Assembly (NCBI GenBank): GCA_031285625.1
Contig: JAITVV010000092.1
Location: 128,001 to 192,000 of the forward strand
Reading direction: 5' to 3'
DNA: 64,000 bases
Source: Prevotella sp.
Lineage (GTDB): Bacteria > Bacteroidota > Bacteroidia > Bacteroidales > Dysgonomonadaceae
Shown: positions 21,871 through 58,455 of the stretch, piece after piece
Numbering within the stretch: position 1 is the first letter of the stretch
Layout: each line of letters opens with the position of its first letter
Notes under the pieces: generated by a model
The model's input: only the letters and a program-made list of their open reading frames with translations
What the model was told of the DNA's origin: nothing
Databases searched by the model: none
Program-made: the position numbers and the translations under genes

Positions 21871-22038
21871 AGTTATAAAATTTCGAAGGGCATTTGATCT
21901 CCATCCATACAATATACTAAAAATGTGTCACATATACAAAATACGTACCTTAGCGCACACATTTTTTTAAAGTATTATAACATTTACCCCCCTCTATCGG
22001 GCATTTTTTTTCTTTTTATGCCAAAATAGTTATAGGTA

Positions 22039-22101: not shown

Positions 22102-23412
22102 ATGATCTTAAAAATTAGAAGCAAAAACGATTATTTGCTTGATATTCTTTTCAAGAACCCGAACACAGACTATGGATTGTATTTCAAGACTTTAAAGAAT
22201 GGTCAGATAGTAGGAAATGCGGTTAACAAACATTACTATGAGGTAGTTTTTCAGGATACTAAATACAGTTATCTGCCTGAAGAAAGCAACCAGATAGACT
22301 ATCAAAGCTATTGCACACCATTATCTGTATTGCACATATGCAATGAGCTTTTTACACATATACTAAAAAGTAAAGACGAGTTTTCTCAAAAACCAATTAC
22401 GTGGCTTGACATTACACAAGGTAAAGCCGATACAGAAAATTGTATAATTGAAATACCTTCTTTTTATATTGACTCCAACTGGTTTCGAAACGAACGTTTT
22501 CTACCTTCAAAGTATTTTGATGGGGTAAAGGTCGAACAACAAACAAACCGCATCTTTAAGTTGACAATTACTGCAAAATCTGTTTTTGAAGCATTCAATT
22601 TACTGGCTTTGGTCGCATTGTTTACTCATGTTACAAATGAATATAGAATACATACTTATATAGATGATCAATTGGCCCAGAAATATGGACGAATATTGAC
22701 CAATATTGAAAATGTTCCATATTTTGTTTTCTACCTGTTCATTATGAAGGCTGTGAAATCCGAAAGTCAGTTTAAGGAACTGAAACCTTTATTCGAGAAA
22801 TATCTTGAAGGAAACGGATTGATAGCTAATCTGGTATTAAAAGGTACATACCTGCAGCGTATTCATTATATAGTTAATCAGCTAGAACTGGATATACCAA
22901 TTCTGGATATTGGATGTGGAGAATTCACCTACTATAAAAAGATGATGGCTAAGGAATTTAAAGCACCATATTATGCTGTAGATCAAGATAGCCAATTTGA
23001 ACGATTGAGTGAGAATATTGCACGAAGGTATGAGGAAGACAATCTGATATTCTACAATTCATTAGAACAGTTTACATCTGACGAACAGGTAAATATTCTT
23101 TTGACCGAAGTTATTGAGCATAATCCAAGGGAAGAAGCCGATATATTGATAAAGAAGGCTTTATCATTTAATTTCAACAAATTATTAATTACCACCCCAA
23201 ATGTGGAGTTCAATCAATTTTACAATATGGAGAGTGAGTTTCGCCACGACGATCATCAGTTTGAACTTACCCAAAAAGAATTTGAAGAACTAATAGAGAG
23301 TTGTATCTGGAACATGGAAAATCCGGAACAATATAAAGTAGCGTTTTTTCAATTAGGTGATAGTCTAAATGACATTCAGCCAACACAAGGATGTGTAATC
23401 AGAAAACAATAA
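22102..23412 (+). CDS. hen1: Hen1-type RNA 3'-terminal 2'-O-methyltransferase
   Basis: ILDIGCGE (SAM), EVIEH, ITTPNVEFN and FRHDDHQFE Hen1 metal-binding motifs; N-terminal KNP motif. Confidence 0.85.
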   Translation: MILKIRSKNDYLLDILFKNPNTDYGLYFKTLKNGQIVGNAVNKHYYEVVFQDTKYSYLPEESNQIDYQSYCTPLSVLHICNELFTHILKSKDEFSQKPITWLDITQGKADTENCIIEIPSFYIDSNWFRNERFLPSKYFDGVKVEQQTNRIFKLTITAKSVFEAFNLLALVALFTHVTNEYRIHTYIDDQLAQKYGRILTNIENVPYFVFYLFIMKAVKSESQFKELKPLFEKYLEGNGLIANLVLKGTYLQRIHYIVNQLELDIPILDIGCGEFTYYKKMMAKEFKAPYYAVDQDSQFERLSENIARRYEEDNLIFYNSLEQFTSDEQVNILLTEVIEHNPREEADILIKKALSFNFNKLLITTPNVEFNQFYNMESEFRHDDHQFELTQKEFEELIESCIWNMENPEQYKVAFFQLGDSLNDIQPTQGCVIRKQ

Positions 23413-23441
23413 TCAGTTAATAGTTATCAAACGATATAATT

Positions 23442-24626
23442 ATGGAAGATTTAAAACGATTAAAAAATAGAATTGACTGGTTTTGTGAAAACAAAGTGAA
23501 TGCTTTTTCACCTACCATATCACCGGCTCCAAAATCGATTGAACGAAACGAGATAGAGAGTATATATGAAGGTATCCGTTACTTCTTTGAAAATGGAGTA
23601 CAGGAGATAGTGATACAAAAGAAATATATGGGCTCTTACTGTGATATATATTTAAATAAGAATCTGGAAGATACCTATTTCGTTAGCCGAAACGGGCATA
23701 AAATAGATCATATTGACTTGATTGCAGCAGTAGAAGCCTGTAGAGAATTGCACAGCCGTATCGACTGGACTGATACTGACATGCTCATTATCCAATCGGA
23801 ACTTATGCCTTGGAGTGCTTTAGGTAAAGGACTGATTGAAAATGAATTTGAAGGCTATCTGAATGTACACCAAAACCACTGCAACCATCTGACTCAATCG
23901 GATATATATGAGAAAATCTCAAAAGTAAAGGCTTCTCAACCTTACATAGACTTTATTGAGGATAAGAACAAACTTTCTCTCAAGGAATTGAGAGAAAGGT
24001 ATCCTCATCATATTATCCGCCAGTATGAATCTGTAGCCGATTTTAATATACTGGATATGGAAGTGTATAAAACAAGTATCGATATATACGAAAAACAGAT
24101 CAATCATTTTGGCAAAAAAGATTCTATACACTTCAAGCCGTTCAATATTCTGAAAAAAGTATTTAAAGACGGCTCTGAACTGATAGTGAACGACAACCTA
24201 AGTTATAGAGAAGTAAATAATGATGAATGTCTGAACTTGTACATACGCAACGAAGAGGAATTTAACCAGTCAGTAGAAGAGATATACAAGTGGTTTGTAA
24301 CCCTGGAGCAAAATATGGAAGAAGGTATTGTAATCAAACCCCGTCAGGCGTTTATCAGAAATATGCCTCCTGCATTCAAAGTAAGAAACAATAAGTATCT
24401 TACAATGATATACGGAGTAAATTTTCATGAACAATATGATTACTATCTTTATAAACGTAAGATCGACCGTAAACTGGAATGCTCCATTAATGACTGGATG
24501 ATCAATTGGGAGTTGCTGAAAGTGAAATACAAAGATATCAGCAAAGAAAACTACCTGTTGAAGAACCTTGTTTTCGACCGCATTATGGGAGAGAGGGTTG
24601 AAGCTGGATTGGATATGAGATTATAA
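23442..24626 (+). CDS. Stand-alone Pnkp-type RNA ligase (Rnl)
   Basis: FSPTISPA, QKKYMGS (motif I), SRNG, ELMPWS, EEGIVIKP, KVRNNKYLTMIYG, C-terminal LDMRL. Confidence 0.85.
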   Translation: MEDLKRLKNRIDWFCENKVNAFSPTISPAPKSIERNEIESIYEGIRYFFENGVQEIVIQKKYMGSYCDIYLNKNLEDTYFVSRNGHKIDHIDLIAAVEACRELHSRIDWTDTDMLIIQSELMPWSALGKGLIENEFEGYLNVHQNHCNHLTQSDIYEKISKVKASQPYIDFIEDKNKLSLKELRERYPHHIIRQYESVADFNILDMEVYKTSIDIYEKQINHFGKKDSIHFKPFNILKKVFKDGSELIVNDNLSYREVNNDECLNLYIRNEEEFNQSVEEIYKWFVTLEQNMEEGIVIKPRQAFIRNMPPAFKVRNNKYLTMIYGVNFHEQYDYYLYKRKIDRKLECSINDWMINWELLKVKYKDISKENYLLKNLVFDRIMGERVEAGLDMRL

Positions 24627-24783
24627 GAATGAACTTGTACAAATTGCTGGGTATGTCTGAATATTTTTATGGAGATTCTATTGAAATAGATATTATAAAA
24701 ACAGACAAAACGAAAACAAGATTTTTGAATTAATCTTTACATACTTTATAAGCAAAAATTAAGTAAGACATAAGTATATAACA

Positions 24784-25698
24784 ATGAAAAAAAACTCCAA
24801 AATATTAATATTAATCGGTGCTCCCGGATCGGGTAAATCCACTTTCGCAAAGTATTTTATCCGCACCGAAGAAAATTGGATGCGTCTTTGCCGTGATGAT
24901 TTTCGCATGATGCATTTTACATATGCTAATTTATCTCCACGCGATGAAGGTTTGATTACCGACATGCTGGATGTATCTATAGAAGCATTACTAAAGAAAA
25001 GATGTAATGTGCTGATAGATGCTACTCACTGCAGAGCAGAATATCTGAACCACTATATAGAAAAATTTAACCATCTGGCAGATATATCTTTCAAAGTATT
25101 TGAAGCCGATGCCGAAGAAATAGCCGAACGCTGTGATAAACGTAATAAGGAAACGGGCAAATATATTCCGGCGAATGTGCAAAAACGCTATATAAAAGAA
25201 CTGGAAGAGTTGAAAAAGACATTTGATCTCTCAACCCGTCCTAAGATTGATAAAAGAGTAAAAATAGCAGAGCAGAATACAACCCTACCTAAAGCTGTTA
25301 TTTGTGACCTTGACGGAACGCTTGCCCTTATGGATGATCGTAATCCATTTGATGCATCCCATAGTGATAAAGATGAATTAAATAAACCGGTAGCAAATAC
25401 ATTAAAAGCTTTAGCGAAAGATGGTTACCAGATACTTTTGGTTTCAGGTAGGGAAGATAAGTTCAGAGAACCGACTAAGCGTTTTCTTGAAATCCATAAC
25501 ATTCCTTATCATCAACTTTGGATGCGCCAAAGCAAGGATTATAGAAAAGATTCGATAATAAAAAAAGAAATATTCGACGCTGAAATAAAGGATAAATATT
25601 ATATCGATTTAGTACTTGACGACAGAGACCAGGTGGTAGAAATGTGGCGTAAAGAGTTAAAGTTAAATTGCTTTCAGGTGAATTATGGGAATTTTTAA
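24784..25698 (+). CDS. T4 PNK-like polynucleotide 5'-kinase/3'-phosphatase (Pnkp1)
   Basis: GAPGSGKST and RDDFR kinase motifs; DLDGT, SGR and DDR HAD phosphatase motifs. Confidence 0.9.
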   Translation: MKKNSKILILIGAPGSGKSTFAKYFIRTEENWMRLCRDDFRMMHFTYANLSPRDEGLITDMLDVSIEALLKKRCNVLIDATHCRAEYLNHYIEKFNHLADISFKVFEADAEEIAERCDKRNKETGKYIPANVQKRYIKELEELKKTFDLSTRPKIDKRVKIAEQNTTLPKAVICDLDGTLALMDDRNPFDASHSDKDELNKPVANTLKALAKDGYQILLVSGREDKFREPTKRFLEIHNIPYHQLWMRQSKDYRKDSIIKKEIFDAEIKDKYYIDLVLDDRDQVVEMWRKELKLNCFQVNYGNF

Positions 25699-26118
25699 AG
25701 CATACCATGTATGCTTACATAATATCCAGTTTGCTTTTGTCTTTTTCGAAGAGAAAAGTATAGCCATATTCACCAAGCCTTTTCTGTGCATCAATCATAT
25801 CTTCTGATGATTTTGTGAGAATCAAAGTAGAAATGATTACAGGATGATCTACATCTTGTAGGTAAGGTTGAAAATAACCGATAGGTACATCAAATCCCAG
25901 ATACTCGGACTAAAACTGATTGCTCATTCCAAGGCTCTATATTTTCAGGTCTTTCCTTTATTACTCTGTTATGATATATATCTAATTGATCCAATAATGA
26001 AGAAAGAATGTATTAAGAAAACAATGTTCGGATTCTGTTCCAATGAAAGTATTATTATCATCAAACGATCGAATTTAATCATTATCCCCAACATGAACCC
26101 GTACAAGATATACTTGTT

Positions 26119-26352
26119 ATGATAGGCCGTCACTTCAATATAGATCCCTTGTTGAAACAATGGACAAAAAGTAAGTCAACAGCTTCTGTTTTACATTTTG
26201 TTGATTTAATGATTAATAAAGATTATAAACAGATTAGCTCATACCCCAATGTTCAAATGGAAAGTAGGATTGATATATGGCTTAAAAAGGCTGATACTAA
26301 AATACATTTTATGGCTGAAAGTCGATATAGAGATAGCATATGCTACATATAA
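26119..26352 (+). pseudogene. Probable gene remnant
   Basis: Short protein-like fragment in an AT-rich stretch with broken frames. Confidence 0.3.
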
Positions 26353-26455
26353 GAATATAGATACAGGCTTTCATACATAGATATTAACAATCCAAATTGT
26401 TATACAAGTAATACTGAATATCCTACCTTTGTTATATTAACTAAATAGTAGAATT

Positions 26456-26755
26456 ATGGTCTTAATACAAATAAATTTTGACTTTCCGGTAGAAATGATG
26501 GGTGACGCTCTCACTATAGGAGCTAAAGAATTGGCAGAAAGTATTAATAATGAGCCTGGTTTTGTTTCCAAAATATGGATAGAAAATGTTAAAACTGAAG
26601 AGAGTGGTGGAATCTATATTTTTAAAGATATGGAGTCTGCTGAAAAATATGCAGCGATGCACTCTAAACGAGTTGAGGCTATGGGTGCAAAAAATATTGT
26701 ATGCAAATTCTTTAATGTGAACGAGCCTTTATCTCGAATTAATCACGGAATATAA
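26456..26755 (+). CDS. YdhR-family putative monooxygenase
   Basis: LAESINNEPGFVSKIWIEN, GGIYIF, FNVNEPLSRI. Confidence 0.85.
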   Translation: MVLIQINFDFPVEMMGDALTIGAKELAESINNEPGFVSKIWIENVKTEESGGIYIFKDMESAEKYAAMHSKRVEAMGAKNIVCKFFNVNEPLSRINHGI

Positions 26756-26758
26756 TAT

Positions 26759-26973
26759 ACAAGTAAGGTAACAGGCGAGAAGAGACTTGCCTTGCGGCTA
26801 TCGGACGTTCTTACCCCCAGGAGGCAGTGAACCGGCATTCGACATCTCAGGGAGACTTGCGCATTGTGCTTTGCCCTGTCGGTTTTCAACCCGACTTCGC
26901 GGAATCGGTTGCCCGAATCTAAGCTACCTTAGGCCCATTATCGAAGTAACCCTTCTCTACGACACTTACTTGT
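26759..26973 (-). ncRNA. Large Y-RNA-like ncRNA with a 23S rRNA H69-H71-like insert
   Basis: Terminal ACAAGUAAG/CUUACUUGU stem; GUGUCGUAG, GUUACUUCG and CCUGUUAC family motifs; TATCTTTG promoter at 26981-26988. Confidence 0.7.
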
Positions 26974-27000
26974 TATTGTGCAAAGATAGTAAAAAAGAAC

Positions 27001-27189
27001 TTATCGGAAAGACTTCCTCTTCTGAATGGCTCCGGCAACAAGCATCACTAGCCCAAGGCCTGTAGTAAATCCCTGAAAGAAAGCAATTGCTGATATCGTA
27101 TGGTCCGGCGATAAATATTTTAAGATGAAAGACACAGATATTAGAAATAATCCCAAGCTTATTTTCTTATTCAAATTTATGTTTTTCAT
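27001..27189 (-). CDS. Small two-TM membrane protein
   Basis: 62 aa, two hydrophobic segments, directly downstream of the helicase. Confidence 0.5.
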   Translation of the reverse strand: MKNINLNKKISLGLFLISVSFILKYLSPDHTISAIAFFQGFTTGLGLVMLVAGAIQKRKSFR

Positions 27190-27223
27190 GATATGTCATT
27201 TTTATTATATACAAATATAATAA

Positions 27224-29980
27224 CTATCTCCATTTGTTCACTTGTTCCGATGTATTATCATCCGTAAAATTTGCCGAAAGGGCTTTCATTCTGGCCTCTA
27301 ACAGTTGTTTTCTACCTTCAATTGTACGTGTATAAATAAGGTCGCATGGACCAACAAGTTCGAGCCATTGCTGAGAGAAATATTGAGCAAGTTTTTTATT
27401 CCTACCCAAGATCTCAGGTACTGCATGGTAGTCGCGCCGGATTTGTTCTGCAAAGAATTTACTTTTACGTACGATTATATAACGTGGATTTTCAATGACA
27501 TTAACAATTTCTTGCAATGTATCGATAAATACAGCTTGCTCAAAAGTACTTCCTCCATCGAGATAACAATAAATGGCTCCAGCTTCATCAGAATATGCAA
27601 TAACCTTTAGGTTTGCAGGATTAGTAATTATTGTGCCTTGCTTGATTAATGACTTGAGCAACACATTTCCTATTTGTTGAATATCTTTAGAAATATCCCT
27701 GAATTTTATATATAGTTTTAGTGTCTTATAAGTTTGCCTGCCACACATAAATAATCCTGTAAGGGCAGTAAGAAGAATAAAGAAATAGAAATCTTTTGGG
27801 GTTCGCAATGCCTTTATATTGTGTATCAATGATTCAAGAGTCTGAGAAGCAAAAGCTGTAAGTAACAATAGAAGATCGGCTCCAAGATACTTTATCGTCC
27901 GCATCATGTATAGTTGTTTTAGCTTTGGGTATTCGCCCCCTTTTTCGCTATAGAACGGGATCTTTATCTCCTCTACAATTTGTACCCCTCCGGCAATAGC
28001 TTTTGCCCATCTTTCATTTAGGGTGCATCGGTCTCCGGCATTCGTTAATGTAACAAGATTAATTCCTCTGATTGTTTCCTCATTGTATGAATCCCTATGT
28101 ATATTAAGGCGTTGCAATCCATTTTCAATTGTCGGTTCCTCATAGTTTGATAATCCGACAAAGCTTCGAAAACGTCTTCTCATTACTTCCAGGTCGCTAC
28201 CTCCATCTTCCATTGTAGGATCGAGGCAGACAAGATGCCATATATTACTTGTTTTGGATGGATTATCTTTTTGTGTTCTTATTGCACGTCCCCGCATTTG
28301 ATTGGAAAGTACAAAAGATCCTACAAAACTAGCTAAAATCAGACTATTGATTGCCGGAGCATCCCATCCTTCTCCCAACAGGGATTTAGTACCGATAAGA
28401 ATCTCGATCTCCCCTTCCTGAAATAGTTGTGTTATGATTTGTACCAGTTTATTTTTAAGAGTTGCATTTGATTTGATAATCCTGTATCCATCTATATACT
28501 CATATGTGAGCGGATCCAGTTCTGTCATGCCGTGTATGATGCATAATTCATGGAAACGACTAATTGCATCAATAGGTATGATTGTTATTGAACCTGTGAG
28601 TACTCCGAGTTTTTTATTATCATTGTTATATTTACGTAGATGTTCGAATATGGGAATCACCCCAATCTTGCTTAACTCAATGTCTACATTGTCTTTATTG
28701 AGGCATTCACTTCGTATATAATCTGACAAAATAACCATGCGCAAATCAGATTGTAAATGGCTATGTTCAAAATCAACAATCTCTTTTATGCTATTCATCT
28801 TTCCATTACTGGAAATAAGAAGCTTATTGATGCGCTGATTATAAAGCATGTTCACTCTGTTGCGTTCGAGTACTCCATATCGTCTTAATTGATTCATCAA
28901 GGCTTCCTTTTCTTCTTCAAACTCTTCAAAGAGTTCTTTCTCCTGAAAAAGAAAGAAGTTAAGTAATATTTCAATACGTTCATAGAGCAATTCTGGAATA
29001 TCTACTTTGGGTATATCATTTCCCTCATATCCACTTACTATTCTTAAGTGGATAACGGGAATCTCGATATTATTTGCATGCAGGAATATAATACATGATG
29101 TGTATATAGGTAAATTATCATAAATCCAGTCCAGATACTTTTCCGGCTCATTCCATGCAGGGATACTTGCCATTGCATTAATCAAAGTCTCCGAATGGGA
29201 TAGCTTCTGATAAAGATCATTCATGTCTTTTCGAAACTTATTTATCTTTCGGTATTCTTCTTCAGTAGGCATTGAAAAGTAAATATGATCCTGATGAGGG
29301 CACAGATCGCCTTCGATAATTAGTTCCGGAATGGAAATTTCTGTGTCGATACTACCATTCAGGTCGAGGTAGCGTCTCCATTCAGTATAGCTGACATCAT
29401 AGGGTGGAGTGGCCGTAAGACCAACGACAAAGGGATCTAATTGTTCTTTAACCTTTATGAGAGTATGCCACCATTCATTCATCAGATGATGTGCTTCATC
29501 AACAACAATTGTCCCTATTCCTACACTTTTTAGTCCTTTAACGATAGATACCAGAGTGGATTTATTATGAGCTTTGGCTTTGATCGGTTTAGGTTCAGAA
29601 TTTTCATCTTCCGGTTCTTCATCTTCTGCTTGTATTTGTCCGCTACATGATGAGTGTAAGCCTTGATACGTCACTACAGTTATGAATGCAGGCTTGCGGA
29701 TATCGGTTGATATCCATTCGGGAGTGATATGTGTATCTAAGAATAGTTCACAAAAACGTTGTATCCATTGGTTCCGGATGGTTAAAGACGGGGCTAGTAT
29801 TAAAGTCGCTTTATTGATGCGTATTGCTACTTCTAGTCCTAATACTGTTTTACCTGATCCTGGAGGTGCGATAACATGCAAATGCCTGTCTTCCATATGG
29901 AAGTCTAATTCATCCAATACTTTTTGTTGGTATTTTCTCCAGGGATATTTAAATTTTGTATTGGATGGAAAGGTTTTCAT
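27224..29980 (-). CDS. SF2 DEAD/DEAH-box (ResIII-like) helicase with C-terminal TM segments
   Basis: PPGSGKT, DEAHH, GLTATP, LGEGWD and QMRGRAIR motifs; two hydrophobic helices near the C-terminus. Confidence 0.85.
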   Translation of the reverse strand: MKTFPSNTKFKYPWRKYQQKVLDELDFHMEDRHLHVIAPPGSGKTVLGLEVAIRINKATLILAPSLTIRNQWIQRFCELFLDTHITPEWISTDIRKPAFITVVTYQGLHSSCSGQIQAEDEEPEDENSEPKPIKAKAHNKSTLVSIVKGLKSVGIGTIVVDEAHHLMNEWWHTLIKVKEQLDPFVVGLTATPPYDVSYTEWRRYLDLNGSIDTEISIPELIIEGDLCPHQDHIYFSMPTEEEYRKINKFRKDMNDLYQKLSHSETLINAMASIPAWNEPEKYLDWIYDNLPIYTSCIIFLHANNIEIPVIHLRIVSGYEGNDIPKVDIPELLYERIEILLNFFLFQEKELFEEFEEEKEALMNQLRRYGVLERNRVNMLYNQRINKLLISSNGKMNSIKEIVDFEHSHLQSDLRMVILSDYIRSECLNKDNVDIELSKIGVIPIFEHLRKYNNDNKKLGVLTGSITIIPIDAISRFHELCIIHGMTELDPLTYEYIDGYRIIKSNATLKNKLVQIITQLFQEGEIEILIGTKSLLGEGWDAPAINSLILASFVGSFVLSNQMRGRAIRTQKDNPSKTSNIWHLVCLDPTMEDGGSDLEVMRRRFRSFVGLSNYEEPTIENGLQRLNIHRDSYNEETIRGINLVTLTNAGDRCTLNERWAKAIAGGVQIVEEIKIPFYSEKGGEYPKLKQLYMMRTIKYLGADLLLLLTAFASQTLESLIHNIKALRTPKDFYFFILLTALTGLFMCGRQTYKTLKLYIKFRDISKDIQQIGNVLLKSLIKQGTIITNPANLKVIAYSDEAGAIYCYLDGGSTFEQAVFIDTLQEIVNVIENPRYIIVRKSKFFAEQIRRDYHAVPEILGRNKKLAQYFSQQWLELVGPCDLIYTRTIEGRKQLLEARMKALSANFTDDNTSEQVNKWR

Positions 29981-30398
29981 TTGTATTGTTTGAGTAATAA
30001 ATCACAAAGATAATTGAAAAAAGGAATAACTCCTTGTTATCCCTTTAGTCTCTATCTTTTAAAATTCTCCATCCTGGTTGGGAATACATTACTTCCATTA
30101 TGAAAAGCAAAGGGGATTCTATACTCAGCAACTGGGTTATCAACGTAAAGGGATGAATAAACGTTTCCGGGAACGTTTTAATCATGAAGAAACCTTTATA
30201 TTTACCAGGAAGGATAATTTTGATTATGCCTATAAGTGTGTCAATTATTATTGGCATGATGACACAAAAGAAGATGTTGATTTACGTAAAAATTCAAACA
30301 TGATTTTATAGATAAATATATTGAAGGTGCAAGTTTTATGATGCCGGACTATTAAGTGTCTGATAAATTATTGTACTTTTAAAAGAAATTATAATCAT

Positions 30399-31151
30399 AT
30401 GAGAGAAAAGAGGGATTTAAATCTGGCAGTACTGATTGATGCAGATAATGTACCGTATTCTAATATAAAAGGTATGCTGGATGAAATAGCCAAAATAGGT
30501 GTACCAACAATAAAACGTATTTATGGAGATTGGACAAAGCCAACAGTTTCGGGATGGAAGCAGCCGTTACTGGAGCATGCAATCACTCCGATACAACAAT
30601 ATAGCTACACTACGGGAAAAAATGCGACCGATTCTGCAATGATTATTGATGCCATGGATATTCTGCATAGTGACAAAGTAGATGGATTCTGTCTGGTTTC
30701 CAGTGATAGTGACTTTACCCGACTGGCAGTAAGACTCAGGGAATCTGGTATGCAGGTGATCGGTATAGGAGAGAAAAAGACGCCGAATCCATTCATTGTA
30801 GCCTGTGATAAGTTCATCTATATTGAAATTATCGGTGATTCTGAGGATCAGCAGGATACAACAACTTCTGCAACAAAGAAAGATAAAGAAAAGAATATAG
30901 AGCCTGTAAATAAAAAACTTATCAATCTGTTAAAGAGCACAGTGCGTGATCTTGCCGACGATGACGGCTGGGCCTATCTGGGAGATATAGGTAATCTCAT
31001 TATTAAAAAGCGCCCCGATTTTGATTCCCGTAACTATGGTTTCTCCAAGCTTGCAGCTTTAGTAAAGGCGCAAAAGAAGGTATTTGAGATAGATGAACGA
31101 AAGACTGAAAAAGGACACTCGCAATTGGTATATGTGAAAATTAAGGAGTAG
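30399..31151 (+). CDS. NYN (LabA/DUF88) ribonuclease-like domain plus OST-HTH/LOTUS
   Basis: LIDADN, RIYGDW, GKNATD, SSDSDF; C-terminal PDFDSRNYGFSKL. Confidence 0.9.
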   Translation: MREKRDLNLAVLIDADNVPYSNIKGMLDEIAKIGVPTIKRIYGDWTKPTVSGWKQPLLEHAITPIQQYSYTTGKNATDSAMIIDAMDILHSDKVDGFCLVSSDSDFTRLAVRLRESGMQVIGIGEKKTPNPFIVACDKFIYIEIIGDSEDQQDTTTSATKKDKEKNIEPVNKKLINLLKSTVRDLADDDGWAYLGDIGNLIIKKRPDFDSRNYGFSKLAALVKAQKKVFEIDERKTEKGHSQLVYVKIKE

Positions 31152-31152
31152 C

Positions 31153-31848
31153 TCAACCTGCTCCATTTATACAATAAAGCAGGATTTTTCCCTCTTTATT
31201 CTTTCGTATATAATATATTTCAGAAAATTCGGTGATACTTTCTTTTGGGTCTCCACTGTTATAGCTCAAATGATAATTTGAAATATACTCTCCTTGGTAT
31301 TCCTCTCCGGTAAAGAGATGGATAGAGTGTATATAGCCATCGGATGTTTTTAGGGTCGGATTATATGCCTTGTCTTTTATTGCTTTATCAAAATCATATT
31401 TAACTAATAATTGTATAAACTCCTTATCAAAGATTTTACTTGCATTCTCAATAAAGTCCTCTCTATAGAATTTACCATCTTTGCTATTAGCTAGTGCCAC
31501 CTGTTCATCAGTATAATCCGGCGCATAAACTTTAAATCGAAAAACATCCCCAAATAAGGGATATTGTACCATGTCGGCCAGTTTATGATAATCTTTTTTT
31601 AAGAGGTTCTTTTTGAACTCTTTCCAAAAACTGATTTGTTCTTCAGCACTCATTATTTCTGTGGAAGTCATCTCCTTATAAGGATCGTCCTGAATATCTT
31701 TCCGTATAGTAGTTTCGGATATTATAGAATCAGTCAATGATACCACTGAGTCAATTTTTTCAACGGGAGCTGCTTTACTTGTATTGCTCGTACATGAAAA
31801 ACAAATCGCTGAAAATAGTATGAAAGAGAAATAAATCAGTTTGTTCAT
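31153..31848 (-). CDS. Hypothetical lipoprotein
   Basis: Lipobox CFSC. Confidence 0.65.
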   Translation of the reverse strand: MNKLIYFSFILFSAICFSCTSNTSKAAPVEKIDSVVSLTDSIISETTIRKDIQDDPYKEMTSTEIMSAEEQISFWKEFKKNLLKKDYHKLADMVQYPLFGDVFRFKVYAPDYTDEQVALANSKDGKFYREDFIENASKIFDKEFIQLLVKYDFDKAIKDKAYNPTLKTSDGYIHSIHLFTGEEYQGEYISNYHLSYNSGDPKESITEFSEIYYIRKNKEGKILLYCINGAG

Positions 31849-31881
31849 ATGTTTGTAAAGTATGTCTGTATAAAGATAGAT

Positions 31882-31918
31882 AAAATCAGAGCTGAAATAT
31901 TACATTTCAACTCTGATT
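31882..31918 (-). terminator. Probable terminator after rsr and the mini Y-RNA
   Basis: AATCAGAG(c)TGAAAT...ATTTCA(a)CTCTGATT hairpin followed by a U-rich tail on the minus strand. Confidence 0.6.
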
Positions 31919-31925
31919 ATTAAAA

Positions 31926-32007
31926 AAATCTTGTGAAGTAACTATCACAAAGAGGCTAGCAAATTTTAAGTCCGAAGGAACTCTATGCTACGACACTCAC
32001 AAGATTT
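31926..32007 (-). ncRNA. Mini Y-RNA-like stem directly after the Ro60 stop codon
   Basis: AAAUCUUGUGAGUGUCGUAGCAUAGAGUUCCUUCG...CUCUUUGUGAUAGUUACUUCACAAGAUUU; same motifs as the other units. Confidence 0.65.
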
Positions 32008-32012
32008 CTCAT

Positions 32013-33527
32013 TTATAGTTCTATTTTTCTTACTTCGTCCAAAGCGTTCCCACCATTATCTATAGCCGATATGATGTCAAATATTTTATCGGACCAACCA
32101 GCTATCAAATACACATCGTTCTGAGTGATATCCAATGGAGTGTTTCCATAACCGGACAAGTCGAACAGATATAGCTTACTGCTTGGTGATATCTTTTTAT
32201 ATTCATTCCATAGATCAGCTATTTTCTTGTCATTTTTGTTGTTCCACAATTGCAAATCAGTAAACATCATGACTTTATCCATCTGTTGTTTTCTCTTTAT
32301 CAGGTCTTCTATTACCAGATAACCGTTGGTTGCATAGCCTACTTCTCCTTCGCGGCGATAGAAAGCATCCACATTAGACAATATACCTTGTGTAGGTACA
32401 TTTATCACCTTCCACTTATCACCGAACATCCCGGTTATGGCATTTTCGCAGCGTGACTTCAATAGCATAGCCAGCATCAAACCTATATCATAACACAGTA
32501 TTTTACTTTTAGCAGATACCGGACGTTGCATAGAGCCTGATACGTCACATGCTATCAGTACACTGGTGTCAGCATCAAAACCTTTTATATTTTCAGCAGA
32601 TACAGCTACGGCTTTTTCCAATGCATCCAGTACACGGCTTGCATATGCAGACTTCACTTTAGATATTTCACGATACGCAGCCAGAAAACGGAATGGCAAT
32701 TGTTTTGAACGACGTACAGCTTCCGGTGAAGCCAACGCACTGCATACTTTTATGATATGCTCTTTCGAAACATTCGATTCCAGTATATTACGCAAGTTAC
32801 GCATCAATGCCATATAGCCTATTTTACCACTATCTATCAGTTCTTCCCATTTGATGCGGAATGCAGTTCCCTTTTCAGCTTCGGAATCAAATTTTATTTG
32901 ACCCAATGCAGAAAGTTCTGTTTCCCAAGTATATGGTGTTTCCAATGTATCATTTACTATCTTGTTGAACAAAGCCTGTTGGTCTTCATCCTTTGCCTTA
33001 GGGTGTACAAGAAATAGTGCATCACGAAGTTTTATTTCCGCATCACGATTATATTTTGCAAACTGATATTCATCAAACCGGTTGAATGCATTCTGCAATC
33101 CGGCTTGTAGCTGTTTCGACAGACGATTTAGTTTCTTTGTGTCTTGTCTTTCATTAGCAAGCTGGTAGTAGGCCAACAGTTCTGTTATCTCATCTGCACG
33201 CTGCACCACTTGCAATACCATTTTGCTTACAGTAGAGTCTCCTCTGTGTATTTTAGCCAACTCTACAGCCAATACCAATGGAATTGAACGCAGATTCATC
33301 TTCTGGCGTGTATATACAGCCAGCTGTGCTACAAATATCGGGTCACATCGTTTTATCAAACCACGCATTGTTTCAACTCGGGCTTGCGCGCTTTCGTAAA
33401 ACTTGTCACTCAATGCAGAGGTAACGGCAGCAGTATACAATTGCCACTCTGGTGATAGACGGTATGCTTGTGCTCCTTCATAATTTACCACCTTGTTTTT
33501 TCCTTTGTTTCTGAAATTGAATTTCAT
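32013..33527 (-). CDS. rsr: Ro60/TROVE-domain RNA-binding protein with vWA domain
   Basis: VNYEG, FYES, RADE, KYNR, TWETELS, MALMRNLRN, SKQLPFRFLAAY; MIDAS DVSGSM. Confidence 0.93.
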   Translation of the reverse strand: MKFNFRNKGKNKVVNYEGAQAYRLSPEWQLYTAAVTSALSDKFYESAQARVETMRGLIKRCDPIFVAQLAVYTRQKMNLRSIPLVLAVELAKIHRGDSTVSKMVLQVVQRADEITELLAYYQLANERQDTKKLNRLSKQLQAGLQNAFNRFDEYQFAKYNRDAEIKLRDALFLVHPKAKDEDQQALFNKIVNDTLETPYTWETELSALGQIKFDSEAEKGTAFRIKWEELIDSGKIGYMALMRNLRNILESNVSKEHIIKVCSALASPEAVRRSKQLPFRFLAAYREISKVKSAYASRVLDALEKAVAVSAENIKGFDADTSVLIACDVSGSMQRPVSAKSKILCYDIGLMLAMLLKSRCENAITGMFGDKWKVINVPTQGILSNVDAFYRREGEVGYATNGYLVIEDLIKRKQQMDKVMMFTDLQLWNNKNDKKIADLWNEYKKISPSSKLYLFDLSGYGNTPLDITQNDVYLIAGWSDKIFDIISAIDNGGNALDEVRKIEL

Positions 33528-33581
33528 CTCTTTTAATTTTTAATGTTAAGGTCTTAACGACACTCTAATTGTTTGACATTA

Positions 33582-33616
33582 CAAAGATTCAAAAACAAGT
33601 ACGCAGCTTTTTTGCG
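33582..33616 (-). promoter_or_regulatory. CGCA-N7-TGCG box and -7-like element upstream of rsr
   Basis: TACGCAGCTTTTTTGCGTA at 33600-33618; AATCTTTG on the minus strand at 33582-33589. Confidence 0.7.
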
Positions 33617-33904
33617 TAACAAAAACTTTCTTTTAAAACTTCTCATTTTTAACAATTATCATAAAAAAGTAACAAGTTACATCGATCTCCAATATTCAAT
33701 TAATTATTTGATTATTAAATATATGATTCTAACATCAAGCATAAAAAGTGACAAAAGTAACAGGTTTTGCCCATTTTTTATTGTAACCTTATTCTTTTAT
33801 CGATATGCTGACCTAATAAGATAAAGTTTTTAAACAATCTCAAATCTGGTAATTTCATACTGATTATAAAAATAATAAGTGTATTTTTGGCTAAAATTTA
33901 ACAA

Positions 33905-34816
33905 ATGTTTGAAAAGAAAATCAGTACGGCAATAGGCCGGTATTTCCCATTATTTATAGGATGGAGCCGATATATATTATATAAACATCCCGACTGGCTG
34001 CTTCGAAAGGATATTCTTAAATATTATGATTCCGTATCTCCATCAGAAATAAATGAAGAACAAGCGGAAGCAGTTTCTTACATTCGTAAAAAAGGGGCGC
34101 ATTATTTTCCCTATTCGTTTATTGAAAAGTATAATCCGGAAAAAATAAAAGTATATACAAATGAAAAATGTGGATTAAAGTATGTATTACATAATGAGAA
34201 ACGGCTCTATTTTGCAAGAGAAACATCAGCTTTTAATATTCAGAGGATATATACCAACCTTTTGTACGAGCAGGATCGTAAATCTGCACATTGCTACCAG
34301 ACTGAGACTTTTAGGATAGAAGAAGGAGACATCCTGTTTGATGTAGGTGCTGCAGAAGGTATATTTTCGTTAACAGTGATTGAGAAGGTAAAGAAAGTCT
34401 ATCTCTTCGAAGTAGAGGAGCGCTGGCTGGAAGCATTACGCGAAACTTTCAAGCCATGGCAGGATAAAGTGGAGATTATCTGCAAATATGTATCTGATAC
34501 GGATAGTGAGCAAACTGCCAAACTGGATACTGTTATAAAAAAGCTTAGTAATGAATCTTTATTTCTTAAACTGGATGTGGAAGGAGCCGAAAAATTAGTT
34601 ATCAAAGGAGCAAACGAGATATTAACTTCAGGAAATAATAAAATTAAAGCTGCCGTATGTACCTACCACAATCAAGATGATCATGAAGAACTATCGGCTA
34701 TCATGAAGGATTTAGGATATAGGGTAAGTACATCTCCCGGCTACATGCTTTTTAAGCAACAAAATCTGGCTCCGCCTTATCTGAGAAGGGGTTTAATTTA
34801 TTGTAGTAAAGAATAA
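33905..34816 (+). CDS. FkbM-family SAM methyltransferase
   Basis: FDVGAAEG, LKLDVEGAE and VCTYH motifs. Confidence 0.85.
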   Translation: MFEKKISTAIGRYFPLFIGWSRYILYKHPDWLLRKDILKYYDSVSPSEINEEQAEAVSYIRKKGAHYFPYSFIEKYNPEKIKVYTNEKCGLKYVLHNEKRLYFARETSAFNIQRIYTNLLYEQDRKSAHCYQTETFRIEEGDILFDVGAAEGIFSLTVIEKVKKVYLFEVEERWLEALRETFKPWQDKVEIICKYVSDTDSEQTAKLDTVIKKLSNESLFLKLDVEGAEKLVIKGANEILTSGNNKIKAAVCTYHNQDDHEELSAIMKDLGYRVSTSPGYMLFKQQNLAPPYLRRGLIYCSKE

Positions 34817-34845
34817 TCTTTACATTATCAGAGAAATAATAGAAG

Positions 34846-35904
34846 ATGACAATACAAGAAATAAAGGACAAAGGGCTATTACTATTTGAATGCATAAGTG
34901 GCAGTAAGGCATATGGTCTGGATACACCAACTTCTGATACAGACCTGAAAGGAGTATTTTATCTACCGAAAGACCAATTCTTCGGACTGGACTATATTAC
35001 TCAGATAAATAATGAGACCAACGATGAAGTATATTATGAGTTGGGGCGGTTTGTAGAATTGCTTTGTAAAAACAATCCTAACATACTCGAAATACTAGCT
35101 TCCCCTGAAGACCGTATATTATACAAGCATCCTATTATGGATAGCTTAAATATCGAACTGTTCTTATCCAAACTCTGTAAGGAAACTTTTGCGGGTTATG
35201 CTCATTCACAAATCAAAAAGGCCAGAGGCTACAAAAAGAAGATCGTAAACCCGATGGAAAAAGAGCGGAAGGATGTGCCCGACTTCTGTTATATTCTCGA
35301 AGGATATTCTTCTGTTCCGGTAAAAGAGTGGCTACAGGCGAAAGATTACCTTCAGGAAAGATGCGGACTGAGTTCTATACCTCATACTAAAGGAATGTAC
35401 GCCTTGTTTTATGACGAAGATGATAAATTCAGATATAAAGGAATAGTACATAATCCCGACGCCAATGAAGTTGCTTTATCTTCTATACAAAAAGGAGAGA
35501 AAGAAGTCGCCTATCTGTATTTTAATGTTGAAGCTTATTCTTTGTATTGTAAAGAGTACAAAGAATACTGGGATTGGGTTGCCAATCGCAATGAAATACG
35601 CTATCAGGGTAATCAGCAACATGGAAAAAATTATGATGCAAAGAACATCATGCACACTATCCGGCTGTTGCAGGTTGCCGAAGAAATATTGCGTGATGGG
35701 AAGCTAAATGTAAAGAGGCCTAATCGAGAACAATTGCTGAATATAAAAGCTGGAATGATGGAATATGATGAACTCTTGGTAATGGCGGACGACCTGATGC
35801 ACAGGATAGAGCAATATGTCGGTAAAAGCCACCTGCAAGATATTCCTGATAAGAATAAAATAGAGGAAATATTGATCGGGATGAGAGTGAAATTATATAA
35901 ATAG
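34846..35904 (+). CDS. Pol-beta-superfamily nucleotidyltransferase (RlaP/YcgL-like, RNA-repair associated)
   Basis: SGSKAYGLDTPTSDTDLKGV, NNPNILE, YDAKNIMHTIRLL. Confidence 0.85.
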   Translation: MTIQEIKDKGLLLFECISGSKAYGLDTPTSDTDLKGVFYLPKDQFFGLDYITQINNETNDEVYYELGRFVELLCKNNPNILEILASPEDRILYKHPIMDSLNIELFLSKLCKETFAGYAHSQIKKARGYKKKIVNPMEKERKDVPDFCYILEGYSSVPVKEWLQAKDYLQERCGLSSIPHTKGMYALFYDEDDKFRYKGIVHNPDANEVALSSIQKGEKEVAYLYFNVEAYSLYCKEYKEYWDWVANRNEIRYQGNQQHGKNYDAKNIMHTIRLLQVAEEILRDGKLNVKRPNREQLLNIKAGMMEYDELLVMADDLMHRIEQYVGKSHLQDIPDKNKIEEILIGMRVKLYK

Positions 35905-36335
35905 CTATAGATCAGAATAATATATCAGAATTCCTATCTAAAGTTGAAAATATTATTAAGTCTCTTGATGAACTTTCAGGTTTATCAGACAATTGCATTA
36001 AAGAATTCGACGGTACTGAATTTGATGGACAAAGCCAGTTAGCTGGTAAGTTGGATGACCTGTTCCTTATAGCTAGCCACGAAATGGCAACACAACTTGC
36101 TTTCGTAAAAGAAGATATTCTTATCCTTATAAAGTTCATAAAATTCAGAAAAGGATATCCCCAACTATCGGAAACAGAGCTCGAACAAATATTAGACACT
36201 GAGAATCTGGAACTTAAATTTAAAATGGAGATAAAACCTAAATTGAGAGACCATAGTATTCTTGAAATAAAGGAATTATGGAACAATACATTCAACAATA
36301 AATCATTCAAGAAGATAATAAACCGGTTCAAATAA
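35901..36335 (+). CDS. Hypothetical protein; frame open from an ATA at 35901
   Basis: Stop-free frame from ATA 35901 (overlapping the upstream TAG) to TAA 36335; the ORF track starts it late at TTG 36051. Confidence 0.45.
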   Translation: MAIDQNNISEFLSKVENIIKSLDELSGLSDNCIKEFDGTEFDGQSQLAGKLDDLFLIASHEMATQLAFVKEDILILIKFIKFRKGYPQLSETELEQILDTENLELKFKMEIKPKLRDHSILEIKELWNNTFNNKSFKKIINRFK

Positions 36336-36339
36336 AAAA

Positions 36340-36463
36340 TCAGGGTAATAAGGCGAAAAGGCTGATATAAACCGGCGCTTTACTTTAAGCTACGAAATCG
36401 ATAGGTCTTGCACCTATATAATCCGGATCCCAAATCGAAGAAATCCTCTTCTACGACACCTGA
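36340..36463 (-). ncRNA. Y-RNA-like unit 5 of array; degenerate permuted tRNA
   Basis: GUGUCGUAG 5' arm; T-arm AUAGG-UGCAAGA-CCUAU, short CGA/UCG acceptor-like hairpin, D-arm UAGCUUAAAGUAAAGC, CCGG/CCGG stem. Confidence 0.7.
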
Positions 36464-36473
36464 AATTATAAAA

Positions 36474-36611
36474 AACAGAAGTAACAAGCGAAAAGAGCGA
36501 GCGGGGCATGGCTTGCCGGAGTCGAACCGGATAGTCTCGCCGGATTTACGACCTCACTATTCCTCCCCTAAAATTGGTAGCCGAAGTATCTCTCTTCTAC
36601 GACATTCTGTT
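36474..36611 (-). ncRNA. Y-RNA-like unit 4 of array; T-arm plus an unrecognised stem module
   Basis: AACAGAA/UUCUGUU stem, AUGUCGUAG, GAUACUUCG; CCGG-UUCGACU-CCGG T-arm; AUAGU/ACUAU and GGGG/CCCC stems. Confidence 0.7.
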
Positions 36612-36621
36612 ATATTTAATC

Positions 36622-36745
36622 AACAAGGCAACAAACGAACAGAGACTATAATAGCTTGCTCTACCCACTGAGCTACACCCGAAGATGACAGGAATCGAAC
36701 CCGTGACCCAGTTAACCGAAGTAACTCTATTCTACGGCACTTGTT
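36622..36745 (-). ncRNA. yrlA: YrlA-type Y RNA (unit 3): circularly permuted tRNA mimic
   Basis: GUGCCGUAG arm, then GGUC-ACGGG-UUCGAUU-CCUGU (T-arm), CAUC-UUCG-GGUG (closed acceptor), UAGCUCAGUGGGUAGAGCA (D-arm). Confidence 0.85.
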
Positions 36746-36763
36746 TGTACTAATTCACAAATA

Positions 36764-36880
36764 AACAAGGTAACAAGCATAAAGAGCAAACTTTGTCCAA
36801 CCTCGGACGTTGCGGGAGTCGAACCCTTTTCATTAATTGGCGTTTAGCAAACGAAGTAACTCTTTACTACGACACTTGTT
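36764..36880 (-). ncRNA. Y-RNA-like unit 2 of array; T-loop hairpin plus two other hairpins
   Basis: AACAAGUGUCGUAGUAAAGAG/CUCUUUAUGCUUGUUACCUUGUU stem; GGG-UUCGACU-CCC; GUCCGA-GG-UUGGAC; CGUUU-GCU-AAACG. Confidence 0.7.
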
Positions 36881-36888
36881 ATATTATT

Positions 36889-37030
36889 TAAACAAGGCAA
36901 CAAACGAGAAAAGCCTTTTTGATCTGGTGTCCTATTTTACTAGACGACTACAACTTACATTGCTGGCTGTTTTTTCAACAGCGTTTCCAGAGTGGATTAC
37001 GAAGTATCTCTTCCCTACGGCACTTGTTTA
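36889..37030 (-). ncRNA. Y-RNA-like unit 1 of array; degenerate permuted tRNA
   Basis: GUGCCGUAG arm; CUGG/CCAG stem, GCUGU-UGAAAAA-ACAGC (T-arm geometry), CAGC/GUUG, UCGUCUAGUAAAAUAGGACA (D-arm-like). Confidence 0.7.
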
Positions 37031-37062
37031 TTTATTTCAATGATCTTTTCTTATTTATACTG

Positions 37063-37096
37063 CAAAGTAATAACCTTGATGTGCAATCTTTTTGCG
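37063..37096 (-). promoter_or_regulatory. Promoter of the Y-RNA array with a variant CGCA-N7-TGCG box
   Basis: TGCAATCTTTTTGCG at 37082-37096; TTACTTTG on the minus strand at 37063-37070. Confidence 0.6.
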
Positions 37097-37160
37097 CAAT
37101 GAAATATTTCTTGAAAAAAAGCTATTCTAACATATTGAAGATACTTACATCAAAACATTA

Positions 37161-38303
37161 TTATTTCCTATTGGGGTCATATACAGCAACAGCCACACGT
37201 GAATCAGCACAGCCATAATACAGATACCATTTTTCATTATGTAATACCAGACCTTCAATGAACACTGTTCCTGCAGGATATTGTCCACTCTTCTCAAAAT
37301 CAGCTTCCGGAATATAGAAAGGCTTATCAAGCTGCCCGATCACTTTTGTCGGATCTTGCAGGTCGAACAATACCTGTCCTGCACAATAGGAGTTCGCAGT
37401 ATATGCAGTATCACCTTCTGCTCCATCTGCATTTTTGCCATTATAAAGCAAAAGGATACCCTTGTCTGTCATTACAGCAGGTGGGCCACACTCTGTAAGA
37501 GAGCTATCAAACTTGCCCGGACGAGGCACTATCACTTTAAGGAAATCTCCGCTTTCTGTCAGTATTGGAGTCCAGTTGATCAAATCATCGGAAGTTGCAA
37601 CATTCACGAATTTTTCACCCCAATACATCCAGTATTTTCCATCAATTTTAGCAATTACCTGTTTTCCATCTACAATTTTAGTTATAATCGATGCCGACTT
37701 CGAAAAATCATCTTTAAAACGTCCGTCATAAGCTTTTGCAAATGCAGGCCCATGTTTTTCCCACTTTTGCAAGTCACGGGTAGTTGCTACAGCCAGGCGT
37801 GCCTGCTTTCTGTTCCATTGTGTATACAGCATCACATACATACCATCTTCAGTCATTGTAAGACGGGGATCTTCACAACCTCCCGGCCATTCCAGCTCTT
37901 TCTGACTATCATTGTCAGGATAAAATGCCGGAGTAGATTTTCGTTGAAAATGCAACCCATCTTCCGACCATGCATATCCAAGGCGGGAAGTACGGCCACC
38001 TATACCCTCTCCCGATTTATCCTCTGCACGATAAAGAACTACTACCTTTCCATCATAAATAGTTGCTGCAGGATTGAAGGTATCATTCGATTCCCAGTCG
38101 ACAGAATCTTTTCTCAACGGACAATAGAAACGGGTGGTAGCATCCGGTGAAATAATTGGATTTATCCCTTCCGGACGTTGAAAATCAGCCCATGCCCAAT
38201 CCGGAAATTCCGAACCTTTTTCAGTTGGTTTCTTTTCATTACAAGAAACGAGCATAGCAGCTGTTGCTAAAAACAAGCTTACTTTAAAAATACTTTTTTT
38301 CAT
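37161..38303 (-). CDS. GH130-family mannoside phosphorylase/hydrolase lipoprotein
   Basis: FNPAA, LYRAED, GGCEDPR, ECGPP, YYGCADS beta-propeller motifs; lipobox LVSC. Confidence 0.85.
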   Translation of the reverse strand: MKKSIFKVSLFLATAAMLVSCNEKKPTEKGSEFPDWAWADFQRPEGINPIISPDATTRFYCPLRKDSVDWESNDTFNPAATIYDGKVVVLYRAEDKSGEGIGGRTSRLGYAWSEDGLHFQRKSTPAFYPDNDSQKELEWPGGCEDPRLTMTEDGMYVMLYTQWNRKQARLAVATTRDLQKWEKHGPAFAKAYDGRFKDDFSKSASIITKIVDGKQVIAKIDGKYWMYWGEKFVNVATSDDLINWTPILTESGDFLKVIVPRPGKFDSSLTECGPPAVMTDKGILLLYNGKNADGAEGDTAYTANSYCAGQVLFDLQDPTKVIGQLDKPFYIPEADFEKSGQYPAGTVFIEGLVLHNEKWYLYYGCADSRVAVAVYDPNRK

Positions 38304-38571
38304 TGGTTATATATTAATTATTTATTTGCAATGTATTTTACTTGTCTATCAAAAAGTAACATTAACACAAAACATCTACTCATCTAATAATCAGGCAATA
38401 TACTATTAAAAGTGACAAAAGTAACACTTTTTTGTATGTTTTTATATTGTTACTTTATTGCTAGATAACACGCTTGTTATCTGTATTATATAGACAATAT
38501 TGAAAATATAAAGTAACAGCTTTATTGGTAAAGAGATCCTTCGTTCCTCTGGATGACAAAATCTTCATTAC

Positions 38572-58259: not shown

Positions 58260-58455
58260 TACTCCTAATGAGATTCGAACTCATATTCCCTTTCGGGCAG
58301 TACGGCTCTAAATACGCTTCCCTACTTTTCAGTTAAGAATTTCGGTGCATCTGTAAAATCTACCCATAACAACGCGCAGCTATTACGGGGCTATCCATAC
58401 ACTCTATGGTAAGTCTAAATTTTGCCACAGGCTTTTCCTTTTAAGCTATAGGAGC
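58260..58455 (-). ncRNA. tRNA-like RNA with a 117-nt structured insertion in the anticodon loop
   Basis: Acceptor GCUCCUA/UAGGAGU plus A, D-arm GCUU/AAGC, UGUGGC/GCCGUA stem, CCC-GAAA-GGG variable arm, T-arm AUGAG-UUCGAAU-CUCAU. Confidence 0.7.

Follow-up and report, generated by a model that had tools for sequence, protein, structure and literature searches.

A predicted array of five Y RNA genes with graded tRNA mimicry near an rsr-like gene in a member of the Dysgonomonadaceae

The unit array and its shared stem

We analysed a 64,000-nucleotide (nt) stretch of a Prevotella sp. genome (GTDB family Dysgonomonadaceae; assembly GCA_031285625.1, contig JAITVV010000092.1, positions 128,001 to 192,000 of the forward strand), here called the window, to which all coordinates refer. 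On its minus strand, positions 36340-37027 are occupied by an array of five head-to-tail units of 115-136 nt each, U1 to U5, which we interpret as Y RNA genes. The limits of a unit are the first and the last base of a closing stem of 5 base pairs (bp), and the A/T-rich linkers between units measure, from U1 to U5, 12, 20, 13 and 12 nt. A first-pass annotation, made from the letters of the sequence, had given units of 117-142 nt and linkers of 8-18 nt, and these figures agree with ours when 1-3 further pairs are counted into each closing stem. The units and the gene of their presumed protein partner, which lies 2.8 kilobases (kb) downstream of the array on the same strand, are the following.

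36892-37027, minus strand: U1, 136 nt; Y stem, small hairpin, T-arm GCUGU/ACAGC with loop UGAAAAA
36765-36879, minus strand: U2, 115 nt; Y stem, UUGC...GCAA helix around the T-arm GGG-UUCGACU-CCC, GUCC/GGAC hairpin
36623-36744, minus strand: U3, 122 nt; YrlA-type permuted transfer RNA (tRNA) mimic, 35.2 bits against Rfam YrlA
36476-36609, minus strand: U4, 134 nt; Y stem, GGGG/CCCC helix around a two-tier hairpin and a T-arm
36340-36463, minus strand: U5, 124 nt; Y stem, anticodon-like stem CCGG/CCGG, T-arm AUAGG/CCUAU with loop UGCAAGA
32013-33527, minus strand: Ro60/Rsr-like gene (rsr), 504 amino acids; Pfam TROVE E 6.5e-31, vWA_Ro60 27.4 bits (cut-off 27.7)

All five units start with a common 23-nt signature, RUGYCGUAG-N4-GRRWUNCUUCG, and carry the complementary strand at the 3' end. 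In the 4.8-megabase genome the signature has eight matches, all on a single strand and inside 32 kb, and no other in the assembly. The reversed control pattern gave no match in this genome and, elsewhere, 0-1 per strand and at most two per genome. This clustering goes beyond chance, and the five self-closing tandem units of the first-pass annotation are confirmed on the minus strand.

For comparison, 170 genomes of the same family were used, 10 of which yielded 63 units (62 distinct), while one more could not be delimited. The lower part of the shared stem consists of 7 bp with a bulged U (a 5-bp outer helix, the bulged U, a G-C pair and a Y-R pair); the upper part has an internal loop with an invariant CGUA, then an 8-bp helix, and a conserved UACUUCG handle comes after the stem. 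The Y-R pair (7:-7) and the upper helix played no part in finding or delimiting the units. In the 62 distinct units the former is C-G in 26, U-A in 33, U-G in two and another combination in one, and in the latter 466 of 496 cells are paired, as compared to 31-49% when the 3' partner is slid.

The occurrence of the units follows that of the protein. A TROVE gene is found in 10 of the 170 genomes (3 of 21 genera), and these are the same 10 that have at least five signature matches; the 160 TROVE-less genomes have at most three matches each, scattered. In G007, G012, G022, G074 and G178, rsr is followed on the same strand, after 0.2-3 kb, by the array. Among 400 sampled genomes of the phylum, four contain signature clusters. 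The Rsr-like protein of the window scores 48 bits against the NCBIfam Rsr equivalog, whose cut-off is 900, and for this reason we regard it as a divergent member. With its covarying common stem, its rsr neighbour and the coupling of signature and TROVE in the family, the locus bears out the name of Y RNA array that it had been given at first sight, and we consider it very probable that the units are Rsr-associated Y RNA genes.

Conservation of the unit types and likeness to tRNA

U1 to U5 are five distinct conserved types, and for every module type other species retain an orthologue. Orthologues are 71-90% identical, as compared to 56-64% for paralogues inside the array and 44-55% for their modules alone. 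The best conserved unit is U4 (84-90%), ahead of U3 (75-78%). The U4 type is represented by 11 sequences from 10 genomes, with 98.2% of cells paired and seven pairs changed on both sides; the corresponding values are 94.2% and eight for the U5 type (eight sequences, eight genomes) and 95.9% and nine for the U3 type (seven sequences, six genomes). For each of the three types, the observed pairing was reached by none of 500 shuffles, and sliding the partner gave 33-51%.

The comparison of unit number and order among relatives, which the first-pass annotation had proposed as a check, showed that order is kept across genera. G023 has U1-U2-U3, a 445-nt insert and U4-U5, G027 has U3-U2-U4-U5 and G004 has U3-U4-U5; the U5 type closes the array in all eight arrays that carry it, and sizes of 3-6 units are the rule among rsr-bearing relatives.

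The modules were compared with the 42 predicted tRNAs of this genome and with one 23S ribosomal RNA (rRNA) locus. U3 matches tRNAs of this genome at 20 of 21 bases over tRNA positions 7-27 (the D-arm region), plus the T-arm. Its module contains all the parts of the permuted tRNA that had been proposed, namely a T-arm (loop UUCGAUU), an acceptor of 4 bp that UUCG closes, and a D-arm, GCUC-AGUGGGUA-GAGC. U2 and U4 match tRNAs in the T-arm only, over 11-15 nt. In both of them a D-arm is lacking and the module is not permuted: a hairpin and the T-arm lie within a helix, in a shape resembling the upper half of a tRNA. The U4 T-arm, CCGG-UUCGACU-CCGG, is invariant in the 11 sequences, and among the two orthologues of U2 the UUGC/GCAA helix becomes AUGC/GCAU in G027. 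U1 and U5 gave no match to these tRNAs or to the 23S locus at E up to 0.5, and still have a T-stem, a closed acceptor and a D-stem, with covariation support for U5. In U1 the acceptor-like stem of 6-7 bp is closed by GUAA and the D-arm-like element is GUCU/AGGAC; in its one orthologue (G023) the T-stem differs by two compensatory pairs and the T-loop reads UGCAAGU. U5 has a very short acceptor and a D-arm GCUU/AAGC. The second position of its T-loop is G in all eight U5-type sequences, so this base is fixed and not noise.

Graded tRNA mimicry, as the first-pass annotation had put it, holds as a description of this series, and the T-loops it had read in U1, U5, U2 and U4 are those found here. 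The portrait of U2 and U4 stands for the UUCGACU loop and the lacking D-arm. It fails for CCAAUU as a conserved trait: the word is present in both units here, in one of 11 U4-type sequences (that of this genome) and in one of three U2-type sequences, and we dropped it as a feature because orthologues do not conserve it. ARAGORN called no tRNA in the array, and the tRNA model gave a sub-threshold 23.2 bits on U5.

Some further forms were observed in the relatives. The G023 insert between the U3 and U4 types spans L045:5309-5753 (+), and in G024 the U3 type together with its promoter-like element is duplicated 1.1 kb apart (L046:5577-6845 (+)). The unit in second place in the arrays of relatives (L050:3740-3874 (+), L051:4145-4279 (-), L049:4601-4717 (-)) is a tRNA mimic whose link to the Y stem is the D-loop and not the anticodon stem, in the order D-arm 3' half, anticodon-like hairpin, T-arm, closed acceptor and D-arm 5' half. 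Between the U4 and U5 types, three genomes have units of 85-86 nt with a T-arm-only module, GCAGG-UUCGAAU-CCUGC (L050:4039-4124 (+), L051:3895-3980 (-), L039:1647-1732 (+), L041:1442-1526 and 1687-1771 (+)), duplicated in G178.

Transcription and genomic neighbourhood

The following elements flank the array.

37080-37098, minus strand: operator-like element TGCGCAAAAAGATTGCACA, two TGCRCA-type half sites 7 nt apart, at the -35 position; putative regulatory role
37063-37070, minus strand: -7-type promoter box TTACTTTG, 35 nt upstream of U1
37028-37055, minus strand: predicted leader from a putative transcription start; its GATCATTGA block at 37045-37037 is common to other arrays
36334-36339, minus strand: U6 run directly 3' of the U5 closing stem, the likely transcript end

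The box TTACTTTG resembles TAnnTTTG, which we take to be the Bacteroidota consensus. Across genomes we defined a composite element by an A-run and a TGC half site, with a TTTG box that follows after 6-24 nt and ends 28-47 nt ahead of a unit. It stands before 16 of 17 units that lead an array or stand alone, and before only one of the 33 units that trail another by at most 25 nt, which favours a single precursor. The placement of the array behind one promoter, as first proposed, is consistent with this, since a promoter-like element is seen upstream of U1 only. The sigma-70 scan did not call the box, and the terminator scan called nothing. The U6 run faces the stop codon (36333-36335) of a convergent plus-strand open reading frame (ORF), and a T-run follows U5 in five of eight arrays. 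In the metatranscriptome, run X4, a single contig of 206 nt (36813-37018, without differences) spans the U1-U2 linker and is the only covered part of 26000-38500. The polycistronic precursor of the first-pass annotation is in line with the leading-only composite element and with this contig; the cutting at the linkers is a prediction. Overall, it is likely that the five units are co-transcribed as a single precursor cut in the linkers. Two plus-strand ORFs overlie the array (36408-36671 and 36919-37218) and have no family match in PADLOC or NCBIfam; Pfam was not searched.

The same strand of the window holds three further Y-type units, which brings the total to eight in 32 kb, and the window also has a cassette of RNA-repair genes.

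31933-32000, minus strand: short Y unit, 68 nt; stem and small loop; it begins 13 nt past the rsr stop, and a U7 run comes after it
26763-26969, minus strand: long Y unit, 207 nt; same stem and signature, own TATCTTTG box, five orthologues
58465-58611, minus strand: stand-alone YrlA-type unit; long acceptor arm, Rfam YrlA 34.3 bits, ten orthologues, same promoter-like element
22102-25698, plus strand: Pnkp/Hen1 RNA-repair cassette; Hen1 N-terminal domain protein, Pnkp ligase-domain protein, Pnkp kinase/phosphatase

The short type also adjoins rsr in G004, G012, G024 and G074. Short rsr-adjacent units are without the composite element and stand directly after the rsr stop, and the one of the window is probably co-transcribed with rsr; in long units a box stands 9-12 nt upstream. 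In the long unit, the module after the handle is identical at 17 of 19 bases to 23S rRNA at about 1926-1945 (shuffle z 2.0), the 23S sequence used being that of a relative because this genome has no assembled 23S rRNA. The G023 orthologue is identical to 23S rRNA 1920-1949 at 29 of 30 bases (shuffle z 9.5). A GUCGG...CCGAC hairpin comes next and covaries among the five orthologues. No Rfam LSU match was obtained for the long unit, which may be an rRNA-mimicking Y RNA.

The stand-alone unit matches the tRNAs of this genome at 20 of 20 bases. Its 5' half (58540-58611, minus strand), made up of the 5' strand of the Y stem, an anticodon-like hairpin and a T-arm, reaches 28.7 bits with the ordinary tRNA model (cut-off 29), a hint that the Y RNAs of this locus may have arisen from adjacent tRNA genes. 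A tRNA-shaped RNA of 198 nt (58258-58455, minus strand) is found 9 nt downstream of the unit; its structured centre, about 145 nt long, is framed by a 7-bp acceptor stem, a D-arm and a T-arm. This RNA was not called by ARAGORN and has no Rfam match at E up to 1; it is kept in G004, G024, G027 and G023, and its first acceptor pair covaries between A-U and G-C.

Between rsr and the array, the plus strand encodes an FkbM-type methyltransferase, an RlaP-family nucleotidyltransferase and a small ORF. Farther along are a NYN/OST-HTH protein, a ResIII-type helicase and the Hen1/Pnkp cassette, and RtcB is encoded on another contig. Given the RNA-repair roles that we take the Pnkp/Hen1 and RlaP proteins to have, the gene content points to an RNA quality-control and repair island, to which the array would belong together with rsr, the three other Y-type RNAs, Pnkp/Hen1, the RlaP-family nucleotidyltransferase and the NYN nuclease. 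A radical-SAM gene (20545-21912) lies upstream of the cassette. The contigs of a related strain (X1, X2) join 27270 straight to 30098, so the ResIII-type helicase gene (27271-30097) is present here and absent there.

Interpretation and relation to known Y RNAs

Taken together, these data suggest that the array consists of five distinct Y RNA genes on one precursor, which is cut to Rsr-docked RNAs with different modules; we put the probability of this reading at a little under 0.8. Transcription would start from the single promoter-like element upstream of U1, give a precursor of about 720 nt and end at the U-run after U5. Cuts in the A/U-rich linkers, followed by trimming to the Rsr-protected stems, would release the mature RNAs, as for YrlA and YrlB from the Salmonella rsr operon. 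Each RNA would sit with its stem on Rsr and present its own module outward: a canonical tRNA elbow in U3, a tRNA shape with a changed T-loop in U1 and U5, a T-arm only in U2 and U4. In this way one Rsr pool could be split into several ribonucleoproteins with different partners or gates. That the modules engage different partners, as the first-pass annotation had also supposed for tRNA-elbow-binding proteins or toxins, is a tentative proposal, to which we give somewhat less than even odds.

Several observations weigh against this interpretation. The invariance of the outer five pairs and of much of the signature is partly a product of construction, because both were used to find and delimit the units. 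Single-sequence folding energy did not stand out from that of shuffles (z of -0.37, -0.63, -0.31, +1.19 and -0.16 for the five units); such folding is uninformative here, and the evidence for the structures is comparative. The gathering threshold of YrlA (RF02553), 69 bits, is not reached by any unit, U3 having 35.2 bits (E 9.3e-6) in a relaxed search. U1 is known from two sequences, with T-loops that are not the same in the two genomes, and U2 from three. The U5 acceptor has about 2 bp here vs. 5 bp in other genomes, and this shortening could represent early decay. Three opposite-strand genes separate the array from rsr, and in G023, which has the same U1-U5 order, rsr is on another contig. 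As for the transcript, a second U6 run is found 3' of U4, so that some transcripts may stop ahead of U5. The X4 contig has a depth of 2.7, and a contig cannot prove a single transcript. Runs X1, X2 and X3, from a strain about 97% identical, cover 26000-38500 evenly, and because the coverage is even over the whole 12.5 kb their reads may be DNA.

Part of this evidence has also been weighed under other explanations. If only U3 were functional and U1, U2, U4 and U5 were decaying duplicates, it would be understandable that U3 is the sole Rfam YrlA match within the array, that U1 and U5 have no tRNA sequence match and that U1 has a single orthologue, with a T-loop differing between the two genomes. 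This outcome, named in the first-pass annotation as the one that would speak against its proposal, is nevertheless very unlikely, and for U4 and U5 it is contradicted as far as conservation goes: U4 is better conserved than U3, compensatory changes are seen in the U4 (11) and U5 (eight) sequences as well as in U3, the G in the U5 T-loop is constant and the unit order is kept across genera. The units might instead be separate genes with their own starts, or the transcript might end after U4, and in either case there would be no five-unit precursor. A partial TTTATTTG box in the 20-nt U2-U3 linker and the U6 run after U4 are in keeping with this. The composite element, however, stands before only one of 33 internal units, the X4 contig spans the U1-U2 linker, and linkers across arrays, at 10-21 nt, are too short to accommodate a -33/-7 promoter between units; we judge this arrangement distinctly unlikely. 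It is scarcely credible that the locus is a decayed tandem tRNA array or a mobile-element repeat rather than a set of Y RNAs. T-arms, a D-arm and the sub-threshold tRNA-model scores of U5 and the stand-alone unit (23.2 and 28.7 bits) recall tRNA, but ARAGORN found no tRNA in the array and the neighbouring genes showed no integrase or transposase. We rejected this candidate because the arms are permuted inside a covarying non-tRNA stem and the occurrence of the units is tied to TROVE.

A different possibility concerns function. The modules might form a panel of decoys or sensors and not tether Rsr to partner enzymes; as imitations of cellular RNAs they would be the first to be acted on by RNA-damaging toxins or by repair enzymes of the cell itself. 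The island offers suitable enzymes (Hen1, the Pnkp ligase and the Pnkp kinase/phosphatase at 22102-25698, the RlaP-family nucleotidyltransferase, the NYN nuclease), the long Y unit opens with a 23S-identical stretch (17 of 19 bases in the window, 29 of 30 in G023), and the spread over 10 of 170 genomes and 3 of 21 genera is patchy. Anticodon nucleases, however, usually target the anticodon loop; because the modules are without such a loop, they cannot imitate that usual target. Moreover, no toxin gene was recognised beside the array, PADLOC giving only weak helicase and methyltransferase matches, and we hold the decoy panel to be unlikely. Quite improbable, too, is an extended form of Rsr docking, in which the Rsr-docked RNAs, at least eight in number, would be a mimic library of pieces of the translation apparatus and serve as a defence or repair sensor rather than as a simple tether. 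The pieces may comprise a canonical elbow, two altered elbows, T-arm/acceptor mini-helices and a 23S strand near helix 69. If this were true, the RNAs would be baits, by which RNA damage is detected or damaged tRNA and rRNA are passed to Pnkp/Hen1 and RlaP.

If the array is, as we favour, a set of Rsr-docked Y RNAs from one precursor, its value lies in the series it provides. Bacterial Y RNAs are known mainly by one or two per species, and the partner of the tRNA-like module is an open question. Five conserved module types in one predicted transcription unit, from the full tRNA mimic to the T-arm only, are a natural series with which one can ask which features recruit which partner. Standard annotation found none of the five genes; the 23-nt signature with the stem model would annotate the subfamily across the bacterial class.

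Nothing in the array passes Rfam at curated thresholds, and U1, U2, U4 and U5 have no YrlA match even at E up to 10. By the YrlA criteria of Chen et al. (2014), namely a distance below 4 kb and E below 5e-5, U3 qualifies: it is 3.1 kb from the TROVE gene start on the same strand, with a genome-wide E of 1.1e-5, a value that comes from the Rfam model and not from the model of those authors. The permuted order of T-arm, closed acceptor and D-arm is present in U3; U1 and U5 have the geometry with non-canonical T-loops, and it is missing in U2 and U4. The stem covaries strongly, and its motif, GYCGUAG in 62 of 62 units (a count partly imposed by the search pattern), is one base off the Ro60-binding motif GNCGAAN0-1G given in PMC4201824. 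Y RNA and rsr/TROVE occur together in all 10 TROVE genomes, each with at least five signature matches, and the partner protein has both the TROVE ring and the vWA domain, the latter with vWA_Ro60 just under its cut-off.

In Chen et al. (2014; PMC4201824), YrlA RNAs are described on the strand of rsr and no more than 4 kb away from it, in Salmonella Typhimurium, M. smegmatis and others, and 355 candidates are counted across 276 genomes, so that some genomes carry several. The same paper reports that YrlB and Yrn1 have a T-arm only and that four small RNAs lie upstream of rsr in D. radiodurans. The YrlA module is described as a close tRNA mimic whose partner is unknown, with T- and D-loops modified by TruB and DusA, in Wang et al. 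(2018; bioRxiv 10.1101/312249), which cites PDB 6cu1 for the tRNA-like domain's structure. Our literature searches returned no description of ordered five-Y-RNA arrays or of Bacteroidota Y RNAs, although Tables S1 and S2 of PMC4201824, in which genomes with several YrlA matches are listed, may include such loci.

U3 and the 58465-58611 unit resemble YrlA in the pairing of their ends into a stem, which would bind Ro60, and in the permuted tRNA module, and U3 also in lying less than 4 kb from rsr. They differ from it in scoring half the Rfam cut-off, in having GYCGUAG in place of GNCGAAN0-1G and an extra UACUUCG handle and, for U3, in an acceptor of 4 bp. Salmonella YrlB and D. radiodurans Yrn1 and Yrn2 are, according to PMC4201824 and 10.1101/312249, less tRNA-like Y RNAs beside a full mimic, some with a T-arm only like U2 and U4, and several small RNAs adjoin rsr there as well. 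Those sets number 2-4 RNAs, whereas here five are in the array and eight in 32 kb, and the likeness seen is one of architecture. The Salmonella rsr-yrlBA-rtcBA operon, as described in 10.1101/312249 and PMC7790460, also has Y RNAs cut from a longer transcript in an RNA-repair context. The array of the window differs in having its own promoter-like element outside the rsr transcript, with Pnkp/Hen1 and RlaP as repair neighbours. Against this background, three traits stand out as specific to the subfamily: the stem motif in its GYCGUAG variant, the UACUUCG handle and a promoter-like element belonging to the array itself.

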